Shown one piece after another: positions 14,032 to 57,170 of a stretch of DNA of 64,000 nucleotides. Source of the DNA: a virus. Lineage: Duplodnaviria; Caudoviricetes. The translations under genes were made by a program, and so were the position numbers. Every line of letters begins with the position of its first letter. The first letter of the stretch is position 1. The notes beneath the pieces are model-generated. The model was not told the DNA's origin. It saw nothing but the letters and a program-made list of their open reading frames with translations, and did no database searches. The DNA lies in IMG/VR virus record IMGVR_UViG_3300025150_000002, positions 96,001 to 160,000 of that record; one strand, written 5' to 3'.

Positions 14032-17000
14032 CTAGTGCAATTCGTCCCATGTACGCCCCGCACGCGCGTCTGCGGTGAAAGGCACCCTCATTCCGGTCGC
14101 GACGCTCTCCATCGAGGTTTTCACCAATCCGCAGAGCTCCTCTTTCATGGCACGGGGCCCTTGGAAGATGAGTTCGTCGTGGACCTGAATCATGAACCGG
14201 AACTTGGCCCACAACTTCGACTCGGCGGGCCGCGAGTTGGCGACCTTATCGTTCCGGGCGTCGTAGAGCTTGATCATCGCCAACTTGATCAGATCCTGGC
14301 AGCTGTTGTGGGTGAAGAACCCCGCCGCGATGTAGGCATGATTGTCACCGTGAATCTCGATGTCATAGGTCGGTGACGATCCTACATGCTCGACCGAAAC
14401 CACCTTGTCCCACCCATATCCCAGCACCTCCTTGGGACCGGGCTCATCAATGTAGTCGAGAACGGCCTCAATCATGTTCTCGCCTGCGTTTCCTGTCCTG
14501 GCATGTCCGATGTAGGTCTGGATTCTACGGCGCATCCTTCGATCATCAAACGCTGTAGATGATCCCTGCCGCGAAGCGAGCGCAGGCGCTCTGGAGGCCA
14601 GCTCGGCCACAGCCGACACAAACGACCTAGGCAGCTCCCGCCTTGGAGCACGGGTCGCAATAAGCTGGAGAGCGCCCGCCAGGGTGGCCGCCTTCCTTGG
14701 GTGGCGAAGAGGGACCCACCTGTTGAAGGCCTGAAATCCACGATATGAGACATCAAGTCGATACTGCTTGGTCATCCCTCTCTTCTTGCCCGTTCGCGCC
14801 ACGTCGAGCTCGCGGATCGCGCAATCAATCCCGAGAGAACTGGCGAGTTTCCACGCACCTTCAACAAGCTCGCGAACGCGAGAAGAGTAGTTGATGGTCA
14901 GGGATGTATAGGTCTTCTGCTTGTAGCTGAGAACCGACCCGTCAGTGTCGATCAGACCGGCGAGCACAGCGCCTCGCAGTTCGGGACTGGCTGTGTAAGC
15001 CCACTTCGGGATCCTCTTAGCCTGCTTAGAAACGCAGTCCAACCCGAGGATCATCAGGTTTGAACGAGCGCGACTACTGTTACAAACCAGGTCCCTGACC
15101 TTTCCTCCGCGATTCGTATTCCTAAGTCCCCAGCGGAGCTTCTTGCGCGCTGTCTCGCCCTGCGACCTCAAAACCGACTCTTCTAGAGATTCAGGCCAGC
15201 CTGGATCTCTTGCCGATGCCGCCAGGGTAAACCCTTGGGATGACCCGTAGTAACCGTCACCGATGAGTGCACCGACCAAATATGCATCGTCGACGGACGC
15301 CCCATGATCGTCATCACCGCCTGCCGCCAGCACATCGTGCGTGGCTAGCATATCGCCCGAGTCGAGCTCCGACGTCTTGGTCCACACCATTCGCAAGCCA
15401 TCCATGGTCGCGAACCTGTGATCTGCAGAACAGGTGATGGTCCTGCCGCTCGACAGCGTTACCTTAAACACGTCTTTCACGCCGGAGTCGATGACGTCGT
15501 AGTCACTGGTGAATTTCTCGCCGTCGAAAATCGGCAGCCTGTCCGTCGCGAGGTCCTCGATGCTCACGTAGCCCTGCTCTGTGAGAACAGGAGTAGATGG
15601 AGTCACACACCCGCTGACGCGGAACTGGATCGCCTTAGTACCTGCGACGTAGTCATTCTTCTGCCAGTCGGTATCAAGCCGGCGCCGACGTCGCGCAATG
15701 TTGTAGGCGATGTAGTTGTCTTTGACGAGCTGGTTGATGGTCCGCTCATGCCAAGAGGCGATTCCAGGGTAGGCCTGATGCCAGAGCTCGATCAGCCGCT
15801 GGCCGTAACCGATCTGCGGGTTACCGTCCTCATCGAACAGACCTGCATAGATGCAGAACTTGGGTGCTCCCATGCGGTAAAGCAGCCCGAAGTTGCTGTC
15901 CAATACAGCAACACTGTTGCAAATCATCGCAGTTCGTTCGGGCTCGTAAACGTCGAACACTGGGGCCTCCCCAGCATCGGTCACGCTGCGAACTTTTGCG
16001 GTCCAAATTCCAGCGTCTCGATATGCCTTGATCTCGTCCGGTAGCACGTCCTCTAGTAGCTCCAGTCGAGTATCGCCAAATCGAACTGGGCTCTTCTTGC
16101 GGCGGATCACCTCGCGCAGCTTGTCTTTCCTCTTACGCTTGGTCTTGTCGTAGATCGATTCCAGTAGGACCTCTACGCCATCCAAGAACCGGTTGGCGTA
16201 ATCAGCGCTCTGTGGGGCCATGGCCTCCAGGAGCTTGTCAGACTTCTCAGTTGACACGAATCCGACGCGTTCAGCGAACCGCTCGATATCGCGCTGTCGT
16301 CTGACCGTCCAGCACCAGTAAGGTTGCTCTCCCTTTAGGGTGGGCCGCATTTCACTATGGATAAACCCGAGGATGTCGATGTTCATCATCTCGGCGTGGA
16401 TTTGACGAATTAGCTTCTCGGACTTGCTGGTATAGACGATCGCAAAGCTATTTCTCGCCTTTCCAACCGCCTTTACAGTACCGTCGCCCTCGAACAGAGC
16501 CCGGAAGAACTCGCGCTTCAGCGACCACGGTGCACTCCTCACACACCTCGGAATGTCCTTCTCACCAGAGCAGGATTTGAACCCGAGATGGGCCATCCAC
16601 AAATTCAGCTTCTTTGAGGCTACTGTATAGTGCGTAGCCTCCTTATCCAGTGGATGATGTTCAGTGATGGTCCTATCGTTTACCACCAACCTCCAACAGC
16701 CGATGAAATCCTCGACCATCTCTACTGAGCAGTCACCAAACCCGAAGGGCATCTGATAGTAACCGCGAGACTCATCAGTTACCATCCGCCCCTCGGACAC
16801 GAAGTAGCCGAAAAACCGAGCAACCTCTGGCGTCATCTCGGTCGGAAGATCAATATCCTTGAGCGCATTCCCTCCGACCACATCAATCGATGGTAGGGCC
16901 ACGTCCTTTCCGTGAACATCACGACCGGTCATGATCAGGCATGGGTCATCGGGCCGCAGATCAGCAGCCATCACTCGTTCGACCTTTCCGCCTCGCATCA

Positions 17001-20000
17001 CAAAGAATTCGTGGTCCGGCGTGGCCGTGAGCTTGATCCCGTATTCGAGGTTCACATCGACGACGGAACGAACTCCAGGGCTCCAGGTCGAGTCGGTGTA
17101 GCGAATCTGACCATCGTCAGACATGATCCCGATACGCTTCTTGAACCTGTCCGGCTCGGTCACCACCTCGCCCATCTCAAGCAGCCCGTGCTCTGTAAGG
17201 AGCATGGCGTCAGCGGTCACGCAGTTCTTTGCCAACGGATTACGCTTAACTTGGACGTCCTCTGCAGTTCGTTGGTGAAGGTCGACGTGTCGGCAGCGCT
17301 TCTGATGCTCGATGTTTGACAGGCCGCACCCGGGACAAAGCGCCGGGTTGCTGTCGGTGTCCGGCAACCACCCCTCAGGCTGCCACGTGTGGCCGCACTC
17401 GTTGCAGGACCAGTTCAGGTAGCGATCGCATGCTGCGCCGTCCTTGTTCCTGCAATGACCGGTGTTCAAGAACACCTCGATCATGTTGAGCTCGTTTGCC
17501 AGGTGGGCTGCCATCCGCAACTCCATCTGCGATTGGCCGCTCACCAACCCATTCTCTAGGACATACGTGTGTGTCCCCTCGACGGTGATCTGCCAAACCT
17601 CCCGCGAACCCACCGGAGTAATCGACACGATTCGATGATTGTCTGATTTCGCGCGGCCTCGATTTGCGCAGGACCTACCGCAGAACCTTGCTGCGCTCTT
17701 CGTAGGCAGGAAATCCTGGTTACATGTTAAGCACGCTTTAGTCCCTGGCTTACCAGACGTAAAACACTCGCGGGAGCAGAACCGAGTCTTTTTTCCGTCA
17801 CTTCTGTAATAGACCACCCCGCACCGGGCGCAGGTCAGGTCACAGCCGTTCTCGCGTGACTTGTGATAGCACGCTCTGCTACAGAACTTACCGTCTGCAG
17901 AAGGTGGTTGGTAAAACGCACTGCCGCAGGAAGCGCAGTTAGTCACGGCTCCCTTCAGGTTCCCGTGATTTGGGTTTCCGTCTGCTTTATAGGATCGACG
18001 GTTCTTCCTCTGGCCTTCGACTAATTGCTGCTTCTTTCGCCGGCGCTGAGATAGGGTGGCCGCGTCCCACCAGCGCTGAGCCCCCTGCCCCCTGTTCTCT
18101 CGGCTGGGCAACCACCGCAGATTAGCACCTCTGTTATCAAAGGTGTCTCCGTTGATGTGGTCGGCATCGTGGCCCTCAGGACGTTCCCCGTGAAAGTGCT
18201 CAGCGAGTACGATGTGCTGAAACGCAGCAACCCCGCGAACCGCCCACATCTTATATCTACCTAGCTGTGTCTCGCGCACGTGAGCCAAGCGATCCCCTGG
18301 ATTCAAGTACTTGGTCTCAACGAGACGTCCTCCGTATGTCATCCATTTATGATCCTCGGTACAAATCACCGATGACCCGTCTTCTAGAACCAGTTCTACG
18401 CACGGAGCAATACCGACCTTGCCACCGGCAACCACTGGTCGAATCTCTAGACTTCTCCCATCGGCAGATGACAACACCGGAGTCTCTGTAGCTGCTACCT
18501 CTTCAATCGGCATGACCCCATTGACGGTGACAATCGGGGTCCCAGCGACCAAACAGTAGTCGGCGTCTATCAGGCATAGCTGAGATCGTTCCTCGTCGTA
18601 ATCGTTCTCTAGATGGGCGCAGAATGCCTTTCGGATCAGATCCTTGTCCCGTGGTTGGTTCATAAGATTCACGGGGTCCGCCGAGTTGTGATTGACGAAC
18701 CCTTGAGCCAGGTAGCTGTGGTCACCCTCTACGGTGATGTCCCAGACATCTTCGACGCTGACTGGAGTGATGCTGGTAACTCGTGCCCAAGTTCGGACGC
18801 GATTCTCTTGATCACCGTAGGGAGGGCCTTGTCGATCTGCTTCGTAGTGAACCTCACCACTCGGTAGCCAAGTTCCTTCGCCTTCTTCGCCTTCCGACGA
18901 TCCCTGGCCTTGGTCTTCTCGCACTTCCGGTGAAACTCGCCATCGACCTCGACCAGTAGTTTCTTTTCTGGCCAAGCGAAGTCCGCTTGCCAGTTCTTGA
19001 AGAAACAGAACAGACGCCGATGCGGGATTCCAGCCGCCGTCAAAGCTCGTGAGAGTCTCATCTCCCGACGATTGGCAGAAAAGGTTAGATGGGACTTCTC
19101 GATCTCCCCGCGCTCGATCAGAGCCTGCATGAACGATCCGCTCTGCTTGACCGCACTCGCTAGAGACATCAGTCTCTGATACGCCTCTACCAGGGAGGCA
19201 AACGCCTTGGCCGGGTCGGTCGACAGCTTCGATACTTGTGGACATAGCGCCGCAAGAGCTTTGTACTCGGTATCCGTGAGCCTGCTGATCCAGGACATCG
19301 TTCCGTGAGTGTGCGCTGAAATCCCGTGATGTCGCATGTCCATCAGGACAATGGATTCCCCCACCCCAAGCTGATCTGCGATCTCGACCGCCGACAGACC
19401 CCTGGACACCTCGGTCTCCAAAAGATTCTTGGGGAAGAACGCCTCCTCGTTCCTCTTGGATGCGCTCAGGAGCCTGCCGTGCTTCACTGCCAGGTCGTCG
19501 GAGAACTGCTTGTAGGTCTTGACCGCCCTGATCAGGGCCTGATGAGATACGCCGAAGGCTACCTTGGCCTGCTCTTGCGTCAGATTGCTGTCGACGAAGA
19601 TCCTCTTGAACGACGCCTTCGAGAGTATGAATCCCTTCGAGCGATCTCGGCGAACCCATGTCGGCTCGTCGGGAAGGATGTCCTCCAAGTCCGGGAGCTT
19701 GGTAGGGTTCCCCCGAAACAGTTCGGGGAACTCCCATCCGTACACTGCCTTGCAGGTCAAGCTGATCCCATCCGACAGCCCGTACAACTTGGCCTTCTTG
19801 TAGACCGGCCTCGGGTCCTCGGCGTAGACCCTGATGAACGAGGGTCGATCTAGCACCCAACGTCGTTGCCTGACGGGCCGCCTTAGTCTCACATACCTCG
19901 GCTCGAAGCAGCCGGTCCCCTCGTTCGAGGTCCTTGAGATCACGCCACCCATTGTTGGTGAGGAATCTGTGGTCCCTTGTGCATCTGATTCGATTTCCGT

Positions 20001-21417
20001 CATCGGTCACCACCTCGAACATCAGGTCTGGGCCCTTGTTGAACAGGTTCAACACTCGCCCCTCCCGACCCTCATGGGTGATGATCATAACATCAGTTCC
20101 TGCAAACCGACCAAGTTCTGAGATTCTGACTGAACGACGGAAGTTCTCTCCTCTCAATCGGATAGAGAGCTTTGATGTCCCAGAAATGCAGCTGAGGCGA
20201 CCAATGACGGTCCCCGTCTGTCTAAACCGAGCGTAGATCCGACCCTTGTTGTCTGGATCGTTGGCGAGCGAAATCAACTTCTTGCAGAAGCTGCTGTCGA
20301 TAACGCTGAGCGAACGATACTTCAGCAGCTTGCCGACCAGTGGAAACTGATCCTTGCGGTGTTTGATGGCCTTGTCGCCGGTACCGTACTGTTCGAGCTC
20401 CTCGTTGTAGTCGACACCTTTGGTGGGTAGCCCCAGCCCACCCTTCTCTGGCGGGTTGTAGAGGAAGTCGGACACCTGCTTAGGCGAGCGCAGATTGGGG
20501 ACCCAGCCAACAGTCTCCTTGAACTCGTTCAGGATCTCCTGCTGCTCTTTGTTGATCCGCTCCTGAACAGTGACCAGCCACTCCCAATCAATAAAGCAAC
20601 CAGTGATCTCCATCTCCATGAGGATCCGCTGGATCTTCATCTCGATCTTCCAGTAGATCTTCTCCAGGTCGGAGTAGACGCCGGGCGTGTCGTCTAGTGG
20701 TGAGCACCACTCGCCCTTGTGCTTGCGCGGAGGGTCCTGCTTCCGCATGGAGTTTATGGCCCATTTCCAGAGCCGATAGGTCCAGGCACAGTCGTCGGCA
20801 GCGTAAACGCCCAGAGGCTTCTTGTTCGCGAAGCCGAAGGTGGCTTGGCCCCCAAAGGCTTCACTGTAGGTGGTCATCTTGTGGCCGAAGACCTGATCGA
20901 CTCGTGGCTTCAGACCATAGCGCCTCAGCCGTTCGTCCGCGATGTAGTCCGCGAGCATGCTGTCAGCGATGACGTTGTTGACGATCAACGGCTCGTCGAG
21001 ACCGCTCTTTAGGTAGAGGAAGGCGTCGTCGAAGATACCGTTGTGGCGGACCGCAATGATGTGCTTGAGGTCCCACAACTCTCGAAGCTGAAGCATGGTG
21101 GAGCGCTGATCAACCGGTTCACGAAGCGCACGCACTTCGCCATCAACCGTGTGCTCCATCGTTCCGTCCGTAAACGGAAACCAGGCGCGAACTGGTCGCT
21201 GCGATGGATTCTTTTCGTTTGGGACGTAGAAGGCTACACCCTCTATACGATCCTTACGGGGCGACAGCCCTGTTGTTTCCAGGTCGTATGAAAAGACGCC
21301 TTCTTCTTCGGCGCGCTCAATCAGATACGGGACGGAGACATCGCAAGTATCGGTAGGGTCCCAGGAGTTACCTTCTTGGTTGGGCTTAACTTTAGCTTTG
21401 GACCTAGCCACCAACAC
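14032..21417 (-). CDS. polA: family A DNA polymerase precursor with four inteins
   Basis: 3'-5' exo YDLETTGL; spliced motifs IGRLS|SADPVNLMN, DADY|SQMELR (A), AKN|SNFGLLY (B), VSG|SCQDLIK, QVHDEL (C); about 741 aa after splicing. Confidence 0.95.
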   Translation of the reverse strand: MLVARSKAKVKPNQEGNSWDPTDTCDVSVPYLIERAEEEGVFSYDLETTGLSPRKDRIEGVAFYVPNEKNPSQRPVRAWFPFTDGTMEHTVDGEVRALREPVDQRSTMLQLRELWDLKHIIAVRHNGIFDDAFLYLKSGLDEPLIVNNVIADSMLADYIADERLRRYGLKPRVDQVFGHKMTTYSEAFGGQATFGFANKKPLGVYAADDCAWTYRLWKWAINSMRKQDPPRKHKGEWCSPLDDTPGVYSDLEKIYWKIEMKIQRILMEMEITGCFIDWEWLVTVQERINKEQQEILNEFKETVGWVPNLRSPKQVSDFLYNPPEKGGLGLPTKGVDYNEELEQYGTGDKAIKHRKDQFPLVGKLLKYRSLSVIDSSFCKKLISLANDPDNKGRIYARFRQTGTVIGRLSCISGTSKLSIRLRGENFRRSVRISELGRFAGTDVMIITHEGREGRVLNLFNKGPDLMFEVVTDDGNRIRCTRDHRFLTNNGWRDLKDLERGDRLLRAEVCETKAARQATTLGARSTLVHQGLRRGPEAGLQEGQVVRAVGWDQLDLQGSVRMGVPRTVSGEPYQAPGLGGHPSRRADMGSPRSLEGIHTLEGVVQEDLRRQQSDARAGQGSLRRISSGPDQGGQDLQAVLRRPGSEARQAPERIQEERGGVLPQESFGDRGVQGSVGGRDRRSAWGGGIHCPDGHATSRDFSAHSRNDVLDQQAHGYRVQSSCGAMSTSIEAVDRPGQGVCLPGRGVSETDVSSECGQAERIVHAGSDRARGDREVPSNLFCQSSGDETLTSFDGGWNPASASVLFLQELASGLRLARKETTGRGRWRVSPEVREDQGQGSSEGEEGEGTWLPSGEVHYEADRQGPPYGDQENRVRTWARVTSITPVSVEDVWDITVEGDHSYLAQGFVNHNSADPVNLMNQPRDKDLIRKAFCAHLENDYDEERSQLCLIDADYCLVAGTPIVTVNGVMPIEEVAATETPVLSSADGRSLEIRPVVAGGKVGIAPCVELVLEDGSSVICTEDHKWMTYGGRLVETKYLNPGDRLAHVRETQLGRYKMWAVRGVAAFQHIVLAEHFHGERPEGHDADHINGDTFDNRGANLRWLPSRENRGQGAQRWWDAATLSQRRRKKQQLVEGQRKNRRSYKADGNPNHGNLKGAVTNCASCGSAFYQPPSADGKFCSRACYHKSRENGCDLTCARCGVVYYRSDGKKTRFCSRECFTSGKPGTKACLTCNQDFLPTKSAARFCGRSCANRGRAKSDNHRIVSITPVGSREVWQITVEGTHTYVLENGLVSGQSQMELRMAAHLANELNMIEVFLNTGHCRNKDGAACDRYLNWSCNECGHTWQPEGWLPDTDSNPALCPGCGLSNIEHQKRCRHVDLHQRTAEDVQVKRNPLAKNCVTADAMLLTEHGLLEMGEVVTEPDRFKKRIGIMSDDGQIRYTDSTWSPGVRSVVDVNLEYGIKLTATPDHEFFVMRGGKVERVMAADLRPDDPCLIMTGRDVHGKDVALPSIDVVGGNALKDIDLPTEMTPEVARFFGYFVSEGRMVTDESRGYYQMPFGFGDCSVEMVEDFIGCWRLVVNDRTITEHHPLDKEATHYTVASKKLNLWMAHLGFKSCSGEKDIPRCVRSAPWSLKREFFRALFEGDGTVKAVGKARNSFAIVYTSKSEKLIRQIHAEMMNIDILGFIHSEMRPTLKGEQPYWCWTVRRQRDIERFAERVGFVSTEKSDKLLEAMAPQSADYANRFLDGVEVLLESIYDKTKRKRKDKLREVIRRKKSPVRFGDTRLELLEDVLPDEIKAYRDAGIWTAKVRSVTDAGEAPVFDVYEPERTAMICNSVAVLDSNFGLLYRMGAPKFCIYAGLFDEDGNPQIGYGQRLIELWHQAYPGIASWHERTINQLVKDNYIAYNIARRRRRLDTDWQKNDYVAGTKAIQFRVSGCVTPSTPVLTEQGYVSIEDLATDRLPIFDGEKFTSDYDVIDSGVKDVFKVTLSSGRTITCSADHRFATMDGLRMVWTKTSELDSGDMLATHDVLAAGGDDDHGASVDDAYLVGALIGDGYYGSSQGFTLAASARDPGWPESLEESVLRSQGETARKKLRWGLRNTNRGGKVRDLVCNSSRARSNLMILGLDCVSKQAKRIPKWAYTASPELRGAVLAGLIDTDGSVLSYKQKTYTSLTINYSSRVRELVEGAWKLASSLGIDCAIRELDVARTGKKRGMTKQYRLDVSYRGFQAFNRWVPLRHPRKAATLAGALQLIATRAPRRELPRSFVSAVAELASRAPALASRQGSSTAFDDRRMRRRIQTYIGHARTGNAGENMIEAVLDYIDEPGPKEVLGYGWDKVVSVEHVGSSPTYDIEIHGDNHAYIAAGFFTHNSCQDLIKLAMIKLYDARNDKVANSRPAESKLWAKFRFMIQVHDELIFQGPRAMKEELCGLVKTSMESVATGMRVPFTADARAGRTWDELH
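14305..15609 (-). mobile_element. PolA intein 4 with LAGLIDADG (435 aa)
   Basis: CVTPST...CSADHRF...LVGALIGDG / LAGLIDTDG...FFTHN/S. Confidence 0.93.
15898..17223 (-). mobile_element. PolA intein 3 with LAGLIDADG, C-terminal Asp (442 aa)
   Basis: CVTADA...ATPDHEF...FFGYFVSEG / FFRALFEGDG...NSVAVLD/S in motif B. Confidence 0.88.
17533..18555 (-). mobile_element. PolA intein 2 with HNH, C-terminal Gln (341 aa)
   Basis: CLVAGT...CTEDHKW...DHINGDTFDNRGANL...three CxxC..FCSRxC repeats...ENGLVSGQ/S in motif A. Confidence 0.9.
18685..20190 (-). mobile_element. PolA intein 1 (502 aa); endonuclease region is non-protein-like filler in this frame
   Basis: CISGTS...CTRDHRF...VWDITVEGDHSYLAQGFVNHN/S. 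Confidence 0.92.
18729..20003 (-). CDS. Vsr/DUF559-like PD-(D/E)xK endonuclease with HTH, nested in the +1 frame of PolA intein 1
   Basis: WQADFAWPEKKLLVEVDGEFH...RDRRK...LGYRVVRFT; HTH LSAVEIADQLGVGESIV. Real start uncertain (19952 or 19892). Confidence 0.85.
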   Translation of the reverse strand: MTEIESDAQGTTDSSPTMGGVISRTSNEGTGCFEPRYVRLRRPVRQRRWVLDRPSFIRVYAEDPRPVYKKAKLYGLSDGISLTCKAVYGWEFPELFRGNPTKLPDLEDILPDEPTWVRRDRSKGFILSKASFKRIFVDSNLTQEQAKVAFGVSHQALIRAVKTYKQFSDDLAVKHGRLLSASKRNEEAFFPKNLLETEVSRGLSAVEIADQLGVGESIVLMDMRHHGISAHTHGTMSWISRLTDTEYKALAALCPQVSKLSTDPAKAFASLVEAYQRLMSLASAVKQSGSFMQALIERGEIEKSHLTFSANRREMRLSRALTAAGIPHRRLFCFFKNWQADFAWPEKKLLVEVDGEFHRKCEKTKARDRRKAKKAKELGYRVVRFTTKQIDKALPTVIKRIASELGHELPASLQSASKMSGTSP

Positions 21418-24117: not shown

Positions 24118-24668
24118 CAGGTGTCCTCGTCCCCCCAGAAATCCCAATCGACCGTTGTGTGTACCGTCTTCTGGTTGTTACAGAGCTGGTCTGCCTCGTT
24201 GTTGTAAGTGGTGAAGTCGGAGTGATCCTTCTGGTGACCGCCGTGATGGATAAACTTGATCGATGTGAACTTCCGCTCATCGATGACCCGCCGAATCTCA
24301 GCAAGTGCGTCGGCTACATTATCGCTGTTCACGCGCCAGGCACCGGCCAGCCACGCTCCTGTGCCGATGTAGTCGTGGACTACGACAAGCGGGCGCTCTG
24401 GGTTCACGACGCTCAGCCCGATCAGCAGCGACCAAAGTTCGGGTCCGATGTTCGCGCTCTTCGCGTCACGGTGCTCAGCGATACGCGTGATCGTCTTGGC
24501 GAACGGGTCAAGGATCACCGCCGCATGCCAGCCGCTGGAGCTTCCGTCGATGAACATCCAGATGTTCGAGTGATCGAGCTTGCGATCCGCACGGAGCCGA
24601 AGCCAGTTTGTCTTGTATTTGACCTTCGCGGCCTTTTCGCTAGTGGTCTCTACGAACTTGATGATCAT
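24114..24668 (-). CDS. ribonuclease HI-like protein
   Basis: FIDGSSS, GPELWSL, VVHDYIG, GHQ...YNNEADQLC. Confidence 0.82.
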   Translation of the reverse strand: MIIKFVETTSEKAAKVKYKTNWLRLRADRKLDHSNIWMFIDGSSSGWHAAVILDPFAKTITRIAEHRDAKSANIGPELWSLLIGLSVVNPERPLVVVHDYIGTGAWLAGAWRVNSDNVADALAEIRRVIDERKFTSIKFIHHGGHQKDHSDFTTYNNEADQLCNNQKTVHTTVDWDFWGDEDTW

Positions 24669-24760
24669 TCTGGGCCGCCGAGGTCTTTGAGCTTCCTCTT
24701 GATCGCCTGCTTCTTGGCAGCGCTCAGCCGGTCGATGAACAGGGTGCCGTCGAACATCAT
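24665..24760 (-). pseudogene. orphan duplicate of the peptide deformylase C-terminus (31 codons)
   Basis: MMFDGTLFIDRLSAAKKQAIKRKLKDLGGPE* versus def HLMGTLFIDRLSPARKHAIKGKLRRL. Confidence 0.85.
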
Positions 24761-25383
24761 CTGGCCTCTTTTACCCGTCGAATGGCGTCACCGATGATCA
24801 GCATCTCATCAGGGGTGAATCGGTCACCCCTGGCGATGTTGCATTCAACACAACAACTAACTACATTATCCGATTCGTAACCACGCTTGTTATCTAGGCG
24901 ATCGAGGCCGATGCCGGCTTCCACATTGTTCGTCAACTTGCAGTAGTAGCACGGCGCTTGAACCAGCTCTTCGTATAGGTCTCGCTTCAATGCCCACTTT
25001 CTACCGGACCGCTGAGCGTTAGCTCTGACATAGTTAAATCGTCCACCACCACGCTTTGTCTTAGCAGCGGACTTTCTCTGCGACTCGCGTCGAGCTTCAG
25101 CGGACGCTTCCAGATAGTAGGAACCCTTTTCACTCTTGAGGTATCGCACTACCCCTCGTTTGTTTCTTTCGAGGTGATCCTTACACCTTGTCTTTCCCTC
25201 GACAGCAGCGGTATTACAGTCGTAGCAGATGCCTGATGCCCGACGTGCTCCTCGCGCGTCGACGTAGCGTTTGTGATAGGCGCGATGGTAGTCAAGGTGC
25301 TCTTGGCACCGTGCGTATCCGGAAACAGGTGGGCTTGTACAGTCCCTGCAGCGCTTCCGTCTACTCGTTCTTCCCTTCGCCAT
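24757..25383 (-). CDS. HNH homing endonuclease
   Basis: CYYC...GIGLDRLDNKRGYESDNVVSCCVECN; N-terminal CxxC..C..H repeats. Confidence 0.85.
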   Translation of the reverse strand: MAKGRTSRRKRCRDCTSPPVSGYARCQEHLDYHRAYHKRYVDARGARRASGICYDCNTAAVEGKTRCKDHLERNKRGVVRYLKSEKGSYYLEASAEARRESQRKSAAKTKRGGGRFNYVRANAQRSGRKWALKRDLYEELVQAPCYYCKLTNNVEAGIGLDRLDNKRGYESDNVVSCCVECNIARGDRFTPDEMLIIGDAIRRVKEAR

Positions 25384-25912
25384 GCTTTCTCCTCAGTCTG
25401 CGCAGCTTGCCTTTGATGGCATGCTTTCGAGCTGGAGAGAGCCTATCGATAAAGAGTGTACCCATCAAGTGATCGTATTCGTGCAGAAAGCACCGAGCGG
25501 GTAGCCCATCAAGCGAAAATTCGTTTGTCTCTCCGTCCGTGTTCATGCAGCGGATCTTGATTTCCCTTGGACGAACCACCTTTCCGGATATGCCCGGCAC
25601 CGAGAGACATGCCTCGTAGGCCTCGTTCGTGGACTTAGACCTTTCGATGATCTCAGGGTTCAGAAAAATCAGTCCGTCTCGTCTTTGACCGGAGAGGTTT
25701 ATTGCCAAGACCCGAGCGTGCCACGCAACCTGTGGCGCAGCCAGCCCAATACCTTTGGCCTCGTGCATGAGGTCCATAAGCGCGAGGCACTTTCGCCGGA
25801 TGTCGTCTGTTATCTCCGTTACGGGCTGGGACTTGATCCTCAGGCGCCTATCTGGGTAAGTGAGGATCTCCCACTCGTTACCACCCACAGCTGGGTCGCT
25901 CGTGTCGGTCAT
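25361..25912 (-). CDS. def: peptide deformylase
   Basis: GIGLAAPQV, EACLSV, HEYDHL motifs. Confidence 0.96.
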   Translation of the reverse strand: MTDTSDPAVGGNEWEILTYPDRRLRIKSQPVTEITDDIRRKCLALMDLMHEAKGIGLAAPQVAWHARVLAINLSGQRRDGLIFLNPEIIERSKSTNEAYEACLSVPGISGKVVRPREIKIRCMNTDGETNEFSLDGLPARCFLHEYDHLMGTLFIDRLSPARKHAIKGKLRRLRRKHGEGKNE

Positions 25913-28654: not shown

Positions 28655-29506
28655 GTGAGCGTGACCGACTCCAAACCACGTAAGCACAGGCTTTTCATTG
28701 TTGGCGGCAAGGGCAGGAACGTGCCGCCGTGGCTCTCTGCAGCCTTCGACTACGAACAGTTCGAACAGGATCACGCGAAGACCAGAACGCTAGAGCCTAG
28801 CGTCCGACCAGACGCGGTGGTTGTTCTTAGCTCGTGGGTGGGTCATGAACACTTCTACGGGGCGCGAGACCTCGCGGGGAGGCTGAGCATCCCCATGATC
28901 CTCTCACCTGGAGGGTGGTCTACATCACTAAAGGCGGCTGCTGACCTTGGCATCGAATGGTTCATCAAGGACATCGAGCGGGCGCGCACATCCGGCGGAC
29001 TACCAACCCCAACGGTCGAGGCGCTCGACGAGTTCGTCGACAACGCCTGGCGTGAGGCCTACAATCGAGAGTGGGCAGCCCGCGAGGCTCTCACCCAGCG
29101 TTACGCTAAGGAGCGTAAGCGATCAGAGCGCCTTGAGGCCGAGCTCACCAAGCTCAAGGTGACGGAGGCAGCCGCCCAACGTGTCATAGCCGAGATCCGC
29201 GCAGCGGCGGCCCTCCAGCGAGCTGAGATGGAGCGGCACAACGAAGAGGTCCAGCATCGCAGTGCCCGAGTAGCGGACGCGCTGGCCGAGCACATGAACA
29301 CTATGAAGGAGCTATTCGAGTCGGTCGACGAGACTCACGCAATGCTAGTCAAAACTACATCACATGTGCACGGCGTGAGAAACGACGCTCAGAGGAAGAT
29401 GGATTTCCTGAGGGCCGCACTCAAGGTCGCCGAAGAGGGCACCCCGTCTCGCATCGTAGCGACAGAGTCTCCTATATCTGCTTCCAATTTGGAGATGGGC
29501 TCGTAG
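28655..29506 (+). CDS. DUF2325-like domain plus coiled-coil protein
   Basis: LFIVGG...VVVLSSWVGH N-domain resembles DUF2325; long heptad-like C-half; GGAGG RBS. Confidence 0.6.
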   Translation: MSVTDSKPRKHRLFIVGGKGRNVPPWLSAAFDYEQFEQDHAKTRTLEPSVRPDAVVVLSSWVGHEHFYGARDLAGRLSIPMILSPGGWSTSLKAAADLGIEWFIKDIERARTSGGLPTPTVEALDEFVDNAWREAYNREWAAREALTQRYAKERKRSERLEAELTKLKVTEAAAQRVIAEIRAAAALQRAEMERHNEEVQHRSARVADALAEHMNTMKELFESVDETHAMLVKTTSHVHGVRNDAQRKMDFLRAALKVAEEGTPSRIVATESPISASNLEMGS

Positions 29507-29518
29507 AATACGAGCCCA

Positions 29519-30241
29519 GTGTCCGACCCCGGCGAACCTCCATACCTTCCTATCAGCTCAGCTATCTACTGCGGTGACGCTTTCAGGCTCATCAAGCAGG
29601 TGGAGCCAGGGTCTGTACGTCTGCTCTTAACGGACCCACCATACGAAATCAGCCAGGACAACAACCTACACACGATGGGCCGCCGGGGTATCGACTTCGG
29701 AACATGGGACCACGTGTTCGATCAGACCGGGTGGCTTGAGGACGCGGTACGCACCTTGATGAAGGGCGGGTCGTTGGTGGTCTTCAACGACTGGAAACTG
29801 CTCGGAATAATTGCGGCACACCTGCAGTCCCTCGGGATGGTGGTGAAGCGCCAACTTATATGGCGCAAATGTAATCCCATGCCACGCAACATCTTACGCG
29901 TTCCGGTTCAGGCTAGCGAGTTCGCTCTGTGGGCCGTGAAGCCAAAGGGTAGGTGGGTCTTCCACAAACGCCCAGACCGACCCTACGAGCGTGGCGAGTT
30001 CGACTACCCTGTAGTTCGTGGGTCGCCGCACCCGACGAAGAAACCTGATGGCCTGTTCCAAGACATCATTGAGATGTTCAGTGATGAGGGGGACCTTGTT
30101 CTGGACCCGTTCGCGGGTTCGGGCACAACGGCCGTCGCAGCTCAGCGCACGAGGAGACGCCACATCAGCTTCGAAAACGACCCTAACTACTACGACCTTG
30201 CTGTAGCAGCACTTGAAAAAGTGATTCCAGTCAAGCGGTAA
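29519..30241 (+). CDS. DNA amino-methyltransferase (beta class, likely N6-A)
   Basis: LLTDPPY before HPTKKP and VLDPFAGSGTT. Confidence 0.92.
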   Translation: MSDPGEPPYLPISSAIYCGDAFRLIKQVEPGSVRLLLTDPPYEISQDNNLHTMGRRGIDFGTWDHVFDQTGWLEDAVRTLMKGGSLVVFNDWKLLGIIAAHLQSLGMVVKRQLIWRKCNPMPRNILRVPVQASEFALWAVKPKGRWVFHKRPDRPYERGEFDYPVVRGSPHPTKKPDGLFQDIIEMFSDEGDLVLDPFAGSGTTAVAAQRTRRRHISFENDPNYYDLAVAALEKVIPVKR

Positions 30242-30261
30242 ACAGAGAATATGCAGGAGTG

Positions 30262-30378
30262 GTGACTGTGAGACACGGAGACCGACGGAAGACTCTTACT
30301 GCTCCAGAGTACGCAGCCTGGTCGGCCATGCGATCACGCTGTAGTGGCGTTGGTATTGGCGCATGGGAAGACGCATGA
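30262..30378 (+). pseudogene. truncated remnant of a phage HNH-associated endonuclease
   Basis: RHG...TAPEYAAWSAMRSRC matches the common HG..T.EY..W..M..RC phage nuclease motif, then stops after 38 aa. Confidence 0.55.
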
Positions 30379-30446
30379 TTCCCCCAGCAGCACACCTCAC
30401 CGGGGGCACCACCGGTAAGTTCATCGTCGTCGAAGGCAACATCGGG
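30375..30446 (+). pseudogene. relic 5' end of deoxynucleoside kinase, fused in frame to the HNH ORF
   Basis: MIPPAAHLTGGTTGKFIVVEGNIG versus downstream dNK MPIDIPAACSHLSDAQRGAFIVVEGNVG. Confidence 0.85.
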
Positions 30447-30500
30447 CCTGTTGACGACGGTATGGCGTCAATGTTACCTTCTCGTCTTCGGAGGTGGCAG

Positions 30501-31004
30501 ATGTCGCAAAGGCAGCGAAAGCCTTGGACCGAGGACCGTAAGCGCCAAGCGGTCGACCTCTACGAGACTGGCGTCTCAATGCATGCCGTGGCCAGAGCCA
30601 TGGTCACGTCGGTGCGCCATGTTCATCGTGTGCTGAACGAGCGCGGTGTGGTCAGGTCGAAGTCAGACCTTTACCGAGGAGACGGAAACCCGGCCTGGAA
30701 AGACGGTAGGCGCGTCGTTGGCGGCTATGTCTACCTCTACAGACCCGAGAGTCCGATGGCGACAGAGGCCGGCTACGTGGCTGAGCATCGGCTAGTCGTA
30801 TCTGAGTCTGTTGGTCGTCCTCTCAAGCGTGGTGAGGTCGTGCATCACAAGAATGGCGACAAGGCAGATAACCGACTGGAGAACTTGGAACTCTTTGCGT
30901 CGAACGCCGAGCATCTGCGTCACGAGCTAACGGGCCGGTGCCCGGAATGGACCGAAGACGGGAAGCGGCGCCTCCGAGAGGCGCGCAACAGAGGTCGGGG
31001 GTAG
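30501..31004 (+). CDS. HNH homing endonuclease with HTH
   Basis: GYVAEHRLVV...VVHHKNGDKADNRLENLEL; GGAGG before ATG 30501. Confidence 0.9.
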   Translation: MSQRQRKPWTEDRKRQAVDLYETGVSMHAVARAMVTSVRHVHRVLNERGVVRSKSDLYRGDGNPAWKDGRRVVGGYVYLYRPESPMATEAGYVAEHRLVVSESVGRPLKRGEVVHHKNGDKADNRLENLELFASNAEHLRHELTGRCPEWTEDGKRRLREARNRGRG

Positions 31005-31009
31005 CAGCG

Positions 31010-31711
31010 ATGCCGATTGACATACCCGCTGCTTGCTCACATCTGAGCGACGCGCAGCGAGGCGCTTTCATAGTCGTAGAAGGGAATGTGGGGGTTGGCA
31101 AAAGCTCGTTCAGCGAATCACTGACTCGGCTTCGCGGCGAAGGTGCGCAGCTGTTCCCCGAGCCAGTTGATCGGCCCGCCTTCCGTGTGCTCCTCGACCG
31201 CTACTACAAAGAACCCGCACGCTGGGGATTCACGTTCCAGATGTACGCGCTCAAGGAGCGGTTCAAGCAGCACACCCTCGCAGCGGAACTTGTAGCCCAC
31301 GGGATCGACGTAGTCCAGGACAGGAGTATCTACGCTGACGGCTGCTTCGGTCGCCTCGTCCACCTCGACAAGAATATGACCGTAGAGGAGTGGGACATCT
31401 ACGCTGAGACCTTCGGCGCGCTCAAGCGCTTTCTGCGCTACCCCGATCTACTTGTCTACCTACGGGCCGATCCGGAGATTTGCCATGATCGAACCAAACG
31501 GCGAGGACGCAAGGAGGAGTCGGGTGTCCCTCTCGATTACCTGAGACGCCTGCACGACGAACACGAAGCCCTGGTGGATGCCATGAGTCGCTTCACTCGT
31601 GTAGTCACCTTCGACTGGAACGAGTTCCAGGAGGCTGATCTGGTCAATGGGAAAATCGACGAGGCGCTCAACGAAGAAGTGCGGTTCATGCGTGATTTCA
31701 CGCGACTGTAA
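31010..31711 (+). CDS. deoxynucleoside kinase (dNK family)
   Basis: VEGNVGVGKS, QDRSIYAD, YLRADPEIC..R..RGR..E. Confidence 0.93.
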   Translation: MPIDIPAACSHLSDAQRGAFIVVEGNVGVGKSSFSESLTRLRGEGAQLFPEPVDRPAFRVLLDRYYKEPARWGFTFQMYALKERFKQHTLAAELVAHGIDVVQDRSIYADGCFGRLVHLDKNMTVEEWDIYAETFGALKRFLRYPDLLVYLRADPEICHDRTKRRGRKEESGVPLDYLRRLHDEHEALVDAMSRFTRVVTFDWNEFQEADLVNGKIDEALNEEVRFMRDFTRL

Positions 31712-31725
31712 GGCTGGAGGCACTG

Positions 31726-32181
31726 ATGAACATCTTCTTACGTGGGGACCGGGCAGTCCCCATAATCATCGCCAAGAGGCTTATCCGAAAAGAACCGAAG
31801 ATCACCAAAACCCGCCGATTCGTCGGGTTTAGGCAGGGGTTCGGTACCTTGGTCTACAAAGCGATCGAGGTCTTACAGGAGTGCTTCTGGGACGAGGAGC
31901 AGGATGTCGAGGACCTGGGCGAGAGCGAGGTTGTCCATTACGCCATCGACGTAATGGATGATCCCGGCTCAGGTGCTCCGGAGCTCGTGGTCACCAAACT
32001 CCACGGTAAGGCTCGTCCAGGGTGTGGCGTCTACTGTGAGGTGATAACCCCAGTCCTGGAGGACGATGATCGGTCTGATCATCCTTACGCCCCGAACTCG
32101 GAGTTGAGTGGGGCCAAGCTAGTCCAGCCCAAAAAGCAGAGGCCTGGTCACACGGGGCCGCTACCTCCGCCGCAGATCTAG
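31726..32181 (+). CDS. hypothetical protein
   Basis: GGAGG RBS, 151 aa. Confidence 0.6.
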   Translation: MNIFLRGDRAVPIIIAKRLIRKEPKITKTRRFVGFRQGFGTLVYKAIEVLQECFWDEEQDVEDLGESEVVHYAIDVMDDPGSGAPELVVTKLHGKARPGCGVYCEVITPVLEDDDRSDHPYAPNSELSGAKLVQPKKQRPGHTGPLPPPQI

Positions 32182-32183
32182 CG

Positions 32184-32216
32184 ATGGAGCTCATGCGTGT
32201 ATGGTGCGGCCCATGA
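32184..32216 (+). pseudogene. relic 5' end of thymidine kinase
   Basis: MELMRVWCGP* versus tdk MQMLKVFCGPM; its TGA overlaps the ATG of the LAGLIDADG gene. Confidence 0.7.
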
Positions 32217-33067
32217 GCCACAGTCCAAGGCCGATCATCTATCCTGAGATGGGTCGAGAGCTCGCCTACTTCCTCGGCCTCTTCCTCGCAGACGGCTGTT
32301 TCGAGCGCCGAGGCCGGGACTACGATTACAGCACTGTTGCCATCTCTCTGCGCGAGTCGGATGGTTACATCCTTGATGAACTAGGTGAGTGGTTGAGCGG
32401 ATACAAGCTGCGTCCTCGGCTGGGACAAATGAAGAGGGGTCCATCGGCATCAGCCGCAGCCGAGGATCGCAAAAGGTTGCGGTTACACTCAAAACTCTTT
32501 GTCGAGTACCTGACTTCAGAGCTCGGAATCCCAGTGCAGAACAAGGGCAAGCTTATGGGAATGCCGTCTCAGATCAACAATGAGATGGCTTCAGACTTCA
32601 TTCGTGGGGTGTTCGACGGCGATGGTCACATCGCCTATCTTCCAAGTGGAAAGTTCTACGTATGTACTATGGGAGCGCTACTGCTACTGGAGGACATAGC
32701 GCGCAAGCTGGCCGAATTGACCAGTGTTAGGCTATTAAGGCCGACAAAGCACAATTCTGGGGATGTTCACATCCTGCACTATTACAGTCGCGCCGAAGCC
32801 CACGCCGTGTGCGAATTTCTCTACCAGGACCACCCGAGGTTCTTCATGGATCGAAAGCGCAATACCTGGCTGAGCTTTGTCGAGGAGAGATCATTGCCCA
32901 TCAAGCGACCCGTTCGGTGGGATGACGATGAGACGGAAAGACTTATGGCGCTCAAGCAAGATCGCACGAGCCATGGGGTGATAGCCGAGGTCCTGGGTAG
33001 ATCAACCGCGTCTGTGACACAGCGCCTCCACGCCCTGAGAAAGTCGGGAACCTATGCAGATGCTTAA
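32213..33067 (+). CDS. free-standing double-motif LAGLIDADG homing endonuclease
   Basis: LAYFLGLFLADGCF and DFIRGVFDGDGHI; C-terminal HTH/Myb-like segment. Confidence 0.92.
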   Translation: MSHSPRPIIYPEMGRELAYFLGLFLADGCFERRGRDYDYSTVAISLRESDGYILDELGEWLSGYKLRPRLGQMKRGPSASAAAEDRKRLRLHSKLFVEYLTSELGIPVQNKGKLMGMPSQINNEMASDFIRGVFDGDGHIAYLPSGKFYVCTMGALLLLEDIARKLAELTSVRLLRPTKHNSGDVHILHYYSRAEAHAVCEFLYQDHPRFFMDRKRNTWLSFVEERSLPIKRPVRWDDDETERLMALKQDRTSHGVIAEVLGRSTASVTQRLHALRKSGTYADA

Positions 33068-33659
33068 AGTCTTCTGCGGTCCGATGTGCGCCGCCAAAAC
33101 CACCGGGGCACTACACGCGGCACGGCGCTATGCCCGTCATGGGAAGCGCGTGGTCTTGATAAGACCGGCCGGTAGTCGCCGTGCTCACGAGGGCGATCCT
33201 GAGGCTCTGTCGACCAAGAATGGTGAGTCGTTTCCTAGCTTCGACGTAGAGCGGGTCGAGGACATCTTCGAGCGCTCACGGGGTGCAGACGTAGTCTGGC
33301 TCGACGAGCCGAACCACTTCAGGCACGAGTCTAGGTTATTGCACATCATCCCTGAGATAAGAAGGTCGTCCATTATCCTTGTCTCCGGTCTAGGGGCCAC
33401 ATCAGAGCTAGAGCCCTTTGGAAGCTCAATGCCGTTCTTTCTTGCTACGGCCGATGATGTGCAATGGAGGTCGGCAGACTGCGACCTCTGCCAAACCCAC
33501 GGTACAGCGACAAGGAGCCTCTACATCGGAGAGGCTCCTAAGTCAGGTCAGTTGAAGGCCGGTGGAGCGGAGAGCTATAGACCCGTGTGTCCGAAGTGCT
33601 GGACGTCCGCAACGGCGCTCAGCCCATCAGAGCGATGGGCCGTGTTCGCCGCGTCCTAG
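33054..33659 (+). CDS. tdk: thymidine kinase
   Basis: CGPMCAAKT, VWLDEPNHF, VSGL, CDLC...YRPVCPKCW lasso/zinc motif. Confidence 0.92.
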   Translation: MQMLKVFCGPMCAAKTTGALHAARRYARHGKRVVLIRPAGSRRAHEGDPEALSTKNGESFPSFDVERVEDIFERSRGADVVWLDEPNHFRHESRLLHIIPEIRRSSIILVSGLGATSELEPFGSSMPFFLATADDVQWRSADCDLCQTHGTATRSLYIGEAPKSGQLKAGGAESYRPVCPKCWTSATALSPSERWAVFAAS

Positions 33660-34327
33660 TCCTCATCCTCGTCGTGGATCAGGCGATAGCCGATAGCCTT
33701 ATCACCGACGCTCTCATCGGCGAGCCTGGCCTGACGGGCGCTCTGAATCGGAACTCCCTTGTTCCTCAAAGAGTTCACCTTCGTCGACACGTGGTCGGCT
33801 GCGGGTAGGGCACCCATTCGGACCAGCAGCTTCGGCGTAGTGAACATCGGCCACCGCTGGATGAGGATGTCCACGAACTGCTGCTCCTTCTCGGAGAGAT
33901 CTCGTGTGGGCGTGAACGACCCGGGGTAGCCCTTCGCCTTGGCGGGGCCGGAGGCGTTGGTCCGCTGTGCGACCTTCTGCTTCTTGGCCGGAGGCTTCTT
34001 GGCCGGAGGCTTCTTGGTCGACTTCTTGGCGGCCACCGCCTCCTTCGGCTTCGCAACGGCGAACTGGTCCGCCTGCTTGTCCACCTGCTTGTCACGAGAC
34101 ACCACGACCAGTCGCTCCAGGTCGGCGCTGAACCCGTGGATCTCCGACTGCTGGTCGATGTAGTCCTCTAGTGTGCATAGGACGTCGAGCATCCTCGCCG
34201 CTCGGGCCGCCGCAGCGTCTGAGAGCTGCGCCGTCAGCTCGGCGATGACGGCCGCGCTCTCCTCATCCTCCGAGACGAACTGGCGAAGAGCCAGCAGGGT
34301 GTCACGAGTGCTCATGTACTTGTTCAC
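33656..34327 (-). CDS. hypothetical DNA-binding protein (Lys/Pro-rich linker, C-terminal winged helix)
   Basis: KKPPAKK repeats; VSTKVNSLRNKGVPIQS..GYRL wHTH-like end; GGAGG before GTG 34327. Confidence 0.65.
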   Translation of the reverse strand: MNKYMSTRDTLLALRQFVSEDEESAAVIAELTAQLSDAAAARAARMLDVLCTLEDYIDQQSEIHGFSADLERLVVVSRDKQVDKQADQFAVAKPKEAVAAKKSTKKPPAKKPPAKKQKVAQRTNASGPAKAKGYPGSFTPTRDLSEKEQQFVDILIQRWPMFTTPKLLVRMGALPAADHVSTKVNSLRNKGVPIQSARQARLADESVGDKAIGYRLIHDEDED

Positions 34328-56981: not shown

Positions 56982-57170
56982 ATGTCTTCTACCCTAGATC
57001 AGCGTATCCGAAGCGTCGAAGCTATCCTGGGCTTCGAACTTCGCAGCTACCAAGACCAGGCCCTTCGGGCTTTAGGTGCCGGGAAGAACGTCATCCTTCA
57101 CGTTCCAACTGGTGGCGGGAAGGAAGGCTACTTTGTGCTAGACTCTCTTTCAGAGGAGGTCGGTGTATGA
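56982..57170 (+). pseudogene. relic intein-free 5' end of recQ-like helicase
   Basis: MSSTLDQRIRSVEAILGFELRSYQDQALRALGAGKNVILHVPTGGGK then unrelated tail and stop overlapping the ATG of the full gene. Confidence 0.9.

Follow-up and report, generated by a model that had tools for sequence, protein, structure and literature searches.

A LAGLIDADG endonuclease gene at the P-loop codons of a phage thymidine kinase gene: a putative homing cassette with a replacement gene start

Genes of the tdk region and the endonuclease

The sequence analysed here (the window) is a stretch of 64,000 nucleotides, bases 96001–160000 of a 203.5-kb IMG/VR virus record (IMGVR_UViG_3300025150_000002; 203,521 bp; CheckV 89%), and positions are given as those of the window. 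The region around the thymidine kinase gene (tdk) is a plus-strand operon, and no sigma-70-like promoter or intrinsic terminator was detected within 29400–33800. The features, with the basis of assignment in brackets where one applies, are as follows:

29519–30241, plus strand: N6/N4 DNA methylase gene
30363–31004, plus strand: HNH gene
31010–31711, plus strand: deoxynucleoside kinase (dNK) gene
31726–32181, plus strand: hyp151, a conserved upstream gene of 151 aa, preceded by its own ribosome-binding site, GGAGG (synteny by tblastn in 19 related loci)
32184–32216, plus strand: relic, native tdk codons 1–10 (32184–32213) closed by TGA and now a 10-codon mini-ORF (starts of relatives)
32214–33083, plus strand: insert of 870 nt under whole-codon parsing, comprising the endonuclease gene and replacement tdk codons 1–10 (breakpoints from alignment of relatives' tdk starts)
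32213–33067, plus strand: predicted free-standing homing endonuclease gene, 284 aa, or 288 aa from an in-frame ATG at 32201 (Pfam, phrog and PDB profiles)
33054–33083, plus strand: putative replacement (cassette-borne) tdk codons 1–10, MQMLKVFCGP (likeness to P0024/P0028, body tree, AU test)
33084–33659, plus strand: native thymidine kinase body from Met-11 of the GPM P-loop (Pfam TK, invariant columns, 2orw)
33054–33659, plus strand: tdk, the whole live gene, 201 aa

As the initial annotation had proposed, a LAGLIDADG gene is inserted at the P-loop codons of tdk (CGP/M), with the native ten-codon start stranded upstream, and the complete tdk restarts over the end of the homing endonuclease gene (HEG), its ATG lying at 33054 and the HEG stop at 33067. 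The upstream gene hyp151 had no family match in Pfam or PHROG. The tdk, nuclease and upstream proteins (clusters P0001, P0229 and P0231, with the nuclease taken as 32201–33067) are shared with 7–8 public contigs, the longest of which is 368,865 bp; the phage genome may be larger than the 203,521-bp record, or the 368,865-bp contig may be a concatemer.

The protein encoded at 32213–33067 matches Pfam LAGLIDADG_3 at 2.6e-9, with a weaker match (17.8 bits) to the other (first) LAGLIDADG domain at 32261–32398, and phrog_4645 at 1.9e-22. A profile of this protein together with eleven distant homologues matches PDB 2dch, PI-SceI and I-DmoI, and the C-terminal 50 residues match Myb repeats in a PDB profile. 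All family-invariant columns are retained, including the aspartates of both LAGLIDADG motifs (..GLFLADG.. and ..GVFDGDG.., at D31 and D139, both invariant in alignment A2), and the presence in one chain of two such motifs, each ending in a catalytic acidic residue, is a feature of the family. The ORF is predicted to encode an intact, free-standing double-LAGLIDADG endonuclease with a Myb-like helix-turn-helix tail. Free-standing homologues start 11–12 residues ahead of a conserved P-x-M and end just past the helix-turn-helix; since the termini of the window protein align with theirs, the cassette seems to have no spacer on either side of the endonuclease. The best relative of the nuclease, P0079, has a long C-terminus that was considered as a fused tdk start and turned out to be a second helix-turn-helix repeat. 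The G+C content of the gene, 54.5% vs 58.4 ± 2.4% for the genome (4th percentile), is mildly low and hints weakly at a foreign origin.

Across the whole genome there are 15 matches to LAGLIDADG_3, mostly within very long open frames (up to 2464 aa), e.g. the window ORFs 14032–21417, 1972–6681 and 57167–61435. These matches in long frames point to many putative inteins in large replication and structural genes.

The two starts of tdk

The segment 32184–32216 reads ATG GAG CTC ATG CGT GTA TGG TGC GGC CCA TGA and encodes MELMRVWCGP followed by a stop. The TGA of this relic overlaps, as ATGA, with the ATG at 32213, from which the LAGLIDADG ORF extends to 33067. The live tdk has its ATG at 33054 (MQMLKVFCGPM), ahead of the endonuclease stop by 14 nt. 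Among 5.8 billion proteins searched there were 77 tdk homologues, whose N-termini follow the consensus M-x-[LVI]-[ML]-R-V-W-C-G-P-M. One homologue that is 64% identical, P0031, is encoded on a contig of 400 kb that NCBI lists under a Nitrospira MAG, and this filing is either a hint of the host or a case of a phage contig binned with a bacterium.

The resemblance of the ten-codon ORF to a tdk start, noted in the initial annotation, proved close: i) homologue P0026 begins with precisely this peptide (MELMRVWCGPM), ii) the DNA of the ten codons shares 26/30 nt with the tdk start of relative L015, and when every 30-mer of the 203.5-kb genome, on both strands, was compared with the tdk starts of twelve relatives, the relic ranked first genome-wide (26) and the live start second (22), the background maximum being 21, and iii) a loose 7-residue motif, searched in a six-frame translation of the whole genome, hit the relic and the live start only, while it occurs once per locus in relatives. 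Because of the identity with P0026, the 30-mer rank and the uniqueness of the motif, a chance resemblance is excluded.

Related tdk loci gathered with the tdk alignment comprised 1 viral, 30 metagenome and 0 genome loci. In the 19 loci with both genes, hyp151 is followed directly by tdk, and a tblastn search with the endonuclease gave no match in 19/19. The insertion site therefore shows presence/absence polymorphism, the nuclease being present in the window and in 0/19 relatives. In the window, the relic begins 2 nt past the hyp151 stop, with spacing and flanking sequence as at the tdk start of the HEG-less locus L021, where the junction reads ...CAGATCTAACG ATG GAG ATC ATG CGA... vs ...CAGATCTAGCG ATG GAG CTC ATG CGT... 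in the window. Because these HEG-less junctions match in position and in sequence, the relic is the ancestral tdk start, still in its original place. The alignment with tdk loci of related phages suggested in the initial annotation thus identifies the native start. It had also been set beforehand that the similarity would be taken as chance if HEG-less relatives had no such sequence at that position; M..MRVWCGPM is present there, and the check speaks for the relic as a true tdk start.

The HEG-bearing tdk belongs to a single lineage: all 8 public contigs with the tdk of the window also carry the HEG and represent the same phage population. With this one lineage, mobility at the tdk site is a matter of inference. 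A DNA search of the phage collection with 31700–33700 gave no match, and protein searches of that collection gave distant TK and LAGLIDADG matches only. Searches of viral contigs with single proteins yielded nothing useful for related loci, and neither exact nor degenerate DNA patterns of the LKVF-type start of the live gene were found in viral contigs. Many tdk homologues are called from Met-11 (MCAAKTT...) and were considered as further insertions; in L018, whose N-terminal sequence pairs it with P0047, the gene begins further upstream with an ordinary GTG, and to judge by this one locus the Met-11 starts are probably gene-calling artefacts.

At the junction, the sequence is GGN CCN ATG TGC in relatives and GGC CCA TGA GCC in the window. 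Past the ATG, tdk homology is absent (5/15 nt), and the position of the joint is ambiguous by 1–3 nt (A or ATG). Two parsings are equally good. In parsing A, the wobble base of Pro-10 was lost and the native Met-11 codon became the nuclease start. In parsing B, ten whole codons ending in CCA remain, the insert is 870 nt long, Met-11 of the native gene is encoded at 33084, and of the nuclease ATG just the A is native. The initial reading, that one base is missing and the methionine of GPM has become the HEG start, is a valid parsing, but the whole-codon parsing with the 870-nt insert fits equally well. To the left of the joint, the live start differs from the relic by TGG to TTC at –11/–10 and GGC to GGT at –4, and GGT was found in none of the relatives aligned at the tdk start.

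The live tdk matches Pfam TK (PF00265) at 6.5e-19 over positions 3–176 of 176, keeps 43/43 invariant columns, and has the strand beta-1, P-loop and zinc-binding cysteines of a full-length TK1-type kinase. It aligns from residue 4 with the Thermotoga thymidine kinase 2orw of the PDB (2.6e-23), from which it follows that strand beta-1, which leads into the P-loop, is encoded by the ten codons. The relic and live codons 1–10 have 17/30 nt in common and differ at 13/30. With L007, the relative whose gene body is most similar, the relic agrees at 23/30, live codons 1–10 at 16/30 and live codons 11–20 at 27/30; since identity flips from 16/30 to 27/30, there is a sharp breakpoint at codon 10/11.

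The ancestries of the two starts also appear to differ. Among 49 homologues, the identity of the relic 10-mer follows that of the gene body (Spearman 0.79, p 1e-11), vs a Spearman coefficient of 0.28 for the live 10-mer, and with the eight homologues having the nearest bodies the relic shares 7–8/9 residues and the live start 3–5/9. The sole good matches of the live start are P0024 and P0028 (8/9, with Q2, K5 and F7 in common). In a maximum likelihood tree of the gene body (residues 11 onward), P0024 and P0028 fall in a well-supported clade with P0025, P0031, P0032 and P0033, which have Q at or near position 2 and MRVW instead of LKVF, and the window gene falls elsewhere. Forcing the three LKVF genes together was rejected (delta lnL 64.6, AU p 3.2e-7), the group having been defined from the 10-mers, i.e. 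from data outside the tree, but named after the tree was seen; ten codons are also a short segment for such comparisons. Because the relic follows the ancestry of the body and the live start groups with another clade, the relic and the body are probably co-ancestral and the live start was probably imported from elsewhere as a segment of ten codons, most likely from the Q2 clade. The LKVF start in P0024 and P0028 hints at spread of the element. No homologue of the endonuclease above 35% identity, itself aside, was found among 1.8 billion representatives, and therefore the P0024 and P0028 phages are probably without a close copy.

These comparisons also bear on the possibility that nothing was imported, the codons having been copied locally upon insertion of the nuclease and the live copy having then changed fast, by escape from self-cleavage or through the ORF overlap. 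The 14-nt overlap of the live start with the nuclease ORF could drive such change; moreover, K5 and F7 are conservative changes, F7 is present in the HEG-less L021 too, and the live start is not a family outlier in nucleotide sequence (mean 15.7/27 vs a family mean of 17.9). But it would be the unselected relic that is still consensus (10/10 with P0026, 26/30 with L015) and the selected copy that differs at 13/30, and Q2, K5 and F7 of the live copy are common to P0024 and P0028, which belong to another clade with native Q2. We consider local duplication followed by divergence to be quite improbable, and prefer the import of the live start. The initial annotation had described an insertion with terminal duplication; the start is indeed present twice, but the second copy does not appear to have been duplicated on the spot, given 17/30 nt in common and a live start that was probably imported.

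A P-loop is a classic site for inteins and introns, residue +1 would be Cys or Ser, and the genome is rich in LAGLIDADG inteins, so it was also considered whether tdk is a split gene, with the ten codons as exon 1 or N-extein and the nuclease within a group I intron or an intein. Against this, a complete tdk with its own ten N-terminal codons lies downstream, and the endonuclease is in another frame, after a stop. No group I intron was matched in Rfam at E values up to 1, and neither junction has unusual RNA structure (z-scores –0.5 and +0.4). The ORF starts about 20 residues ahead of the first LAGLIDADG motif, which leaves no room for intein splicing blocks, and its C-terminus is a helix-turn-helix. 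Neither a ribozyme core nor an in-frame insertion with Hint blocks was found, and both group I intron and intein were rejected as classifications. A split gene and a chance resemblance, taken together, are hardly credible beside an inserted cassette that has replaced the start of tdk.

Similar layouts at other genes

The initial annotation had counted the tdk insertion as a third instance of its kind, and a check of the dNK locus and an examination of def upheld that there are several such cases in the window. At dNK (window 30363–31100), the HNH ORF at 30363 starts with a relic of the dNK start that ends in EGNIG, inside the P-loop. L007 (327–1130) has the same dNK relic and a homologous HNH gene, 60% identical, on the opposite strand, so that two lineages have the layout at dNK. 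In both genomes the dNK relic groups with HEG-less genes, and the live dNK starts of both share a recoded P-loop, GTA GAA GGG AAT GTG GG, i.e. GTAGAAGGGAATGTGGG. Since the live starts share this recoding and the relics group with HEG-less genes, the replacement start appears to travel with the nuclease at dNK.

A short ORF at 30259–30378, just upstream of the dNK relic, contains ..TAPEYAAWSAMRSRC.., which we take to resemble an N-terminal motif of phage HNH/AP2-type endonucleases; this ORF may be a remnant of an older invader.

In L015 (1389–2815), the N6/N4 methylase gene has a 5' relic of about 45 codons that ends at the SDPP of DPPY. After the relic come a Cys-rich, HNH-like ORF of 187 aa and, beyond it, the whole methylase gene, a layout that is absent from the window. 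L005 and L016 have a methylase relic by tblastn match alone. On the minus strand of the window (24665–25912), an ORF of 208 aa, HNH-like at its C-terminus and without a Pfam match, comes after def, and past this ORF a 31-codon mini-ORF repeats the tail of def after the HEYDH motif. The arrangement at def looks like a 3' version of the tdk layout.

These loci weigh on the view that the tdk locus is a one-off recombination scar, in which an ordinary intergenic nuclease gene upstream of tdk was involved in one microhomology join that stranded ten codons, the relic having no role in mobility or expression. It is in line with this view that there is a single HEG-bearing tdk lineage and that the junction is ambiguous by 1–3 nt (A or ATG), which is typical of microhomology joins. 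However, the layout of relic, nuclease and whole gene recurs at dNK in two diverged phages, at the methylase gene of relatives and at def; in addition, the tdk relic is still a perfect consensus start that ends exactly at the stop/start overlap, and the nuclease has no leader of its own. A one-off scar is, in our judgement, unlikely.

A broader proposal is that the large phages of this uncultured clade host a so far undescribed class of homing cassettes, which enter the codons of catalytic motifs with no need for splicing (P-loop in tdk and dNK, DPPY in the methylase and HEXXH in the deformylase), each with a recoded, cleavage-resistant gene end. In the 5' versions, the stranded start would be used as a leader mini-ORF feeding the nuclease, so that nuclease expression would be tied to the invaded gene. 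To this generalization we give an even chance.

The putative homing cassette and its known counterparts

For tdk itself, we think it likely that the locus holds a homing cassette that replaces a gene start, consisting of the nuclease gene and diverged tdk codons 1–10 placed between codons 10 and 11. The nuclease would cut HEG-less tdk alleles near the CGPM codons, and repair from cassette-bearing genomes would copy in the nuclease gene together with the replacement start. The recoded bases of the replacement start, among them TGG to TTC and GGC to GGT, would shield the new allele from cutting. The resulting live kinase would consist of foreign codons 1–10 and native codons 11–201, making splicing unnecessary.

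Regarding expression, a Shine-Dalgarno core precedes 43% of the long ORFs in the genome vs 10% of random positions. Of the genes at the locus, hyp151 has GGAGG, and the start codons of the relic, of the nuclease (32213) and of tdk are without the core motif. An alternative in-frame nuclease ATG at 32201, formed by GTA TGG of the relic, has GGAG 11 nt upstream, and public gene calls use both nuclease starts (284 and 288 aa). The tdk gene of HEG-less relatives begins 0–3 nt past the hyp151 stop or overlaps it, and because of this abutment translational coupling of hyp151 and tdk is suggested for these phages. In the window, coupling of the nuclease through the ATGA overlap is plausible, and a translation chain from hyp151 through the mini-ORF and the nuclease to tdk is likely from the gene arrangement. 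In such a chain the nuclease, having no leader of its own, would receive ribosomes passed on from hyp151 through the mini-ORF at the ATGA overlap, and translation of tdk would be re-initiated at the ATG 14 nt before the nuclease stop.

Free-standing homing endonucleases are well known in phages, examples being the seg and mob genes of T4 ('intronless homing'), mobE in nrdA of Aeh1 and the mobA-gene 60 cassette. The tdk case resembles them in lying in a nucleotide-metabolism operon, in its patchy distribution among relatives and in having a conserved target gene. It differs in layout, since the known phage genes lie between genes, split a gene into two subunits or involve ribosomal bypass. In the phage literature searched, no described case with a replacement gene start and a stranded relic was found.

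The nearest counterparts are eukaryotic. WHO elements at the yeast FBA1 gene cut this gene and put a resistant copy in place of its 3' end, and the old FBA1 end is left as a fragment that doubles as a homology arm (Coughlan et al. 2020, eLife, PMC7282813). The tdk cassette shares with them a LAGLIDADG-type nuclease beside a full target gene, a diverged gene end, a fragment on the far side, conflicting trees and the lack of splicing. WHO elements replace a 3' end in the yeast nucleus, use an intein-zinc-finger fusion and supply a resistant copy, whereas the tdk cassette would replace a 5' end of ten codons in a phage, with a free double-LAGLIDADG nuclease having a Myb-like tail, and is known from sequence. 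Also unlike in WHO elements, the stranded fragment of tdk appears to act as a translation leader for the nuclease.

In fungal mitochondria, mORF hybrids occur at atp6 of Allomyces and at atp6, atp9, cox2 and nad3 of Glomus; these mORFs insert with a foreign C-terminus and the native one remains alongside (Beaudet et al. 2013, PMC3630166). C-terminal duplications beside HEGs have also been described (PMC6279837). Like the tdk cassette, mORFs combine a LAGLIDADG or GIY-YIG ORF with a foreign gene end, the native end being nearer to relatives. In mORFs, though, it is the C-terminus that is replaced and the ORF is often in frame, whereas in tdk it is the N-terminus, and the ORF is out of frame with an ATGA overlap. 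Three features of the WHO and mORF type are present at tdk: the nuclease lies between a full target gene and a stranded fragment of the same gene end, the fragment appears native and the live end foreign (conflicting trees), for ten codons only, and relatives differ in presence or absence of the nuclease at this site. By analogy with these systems, the target of the tdk nuclease should be naive tdk near codons 10/11, with the live start shielded by its base differences. The tdk layout thus appears to be a 5', phage version of a homing element known from yeast and fungal mitochondria.

If so, the stretch of a phage enzyme gene that is most conserved, and hence most widely shared, is open to a homing endonuclease that has neither intron nor intein but brings a replacement start with it. 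The principle of WHO elements and mORFs, known from nuclei and mitochondria of eukaryotes and from 3' gene ends, would then hold for viruses and for 5' ends as well. For annotation, the 10-codon ORF would be recorded as a relic, tdk as a hybrid and the nuclease start as ambiguous (32201 or 32213). The locus also suggests a natural target pair, the naive and the recoded P-loop sequence, for a new LAGLIDADG specificity. More generally, such cassettes offer a way in which gene starts may undergo very short horizontal replacements, and an explanation of tiny ORFs that annotation pipelines leave unexplained.
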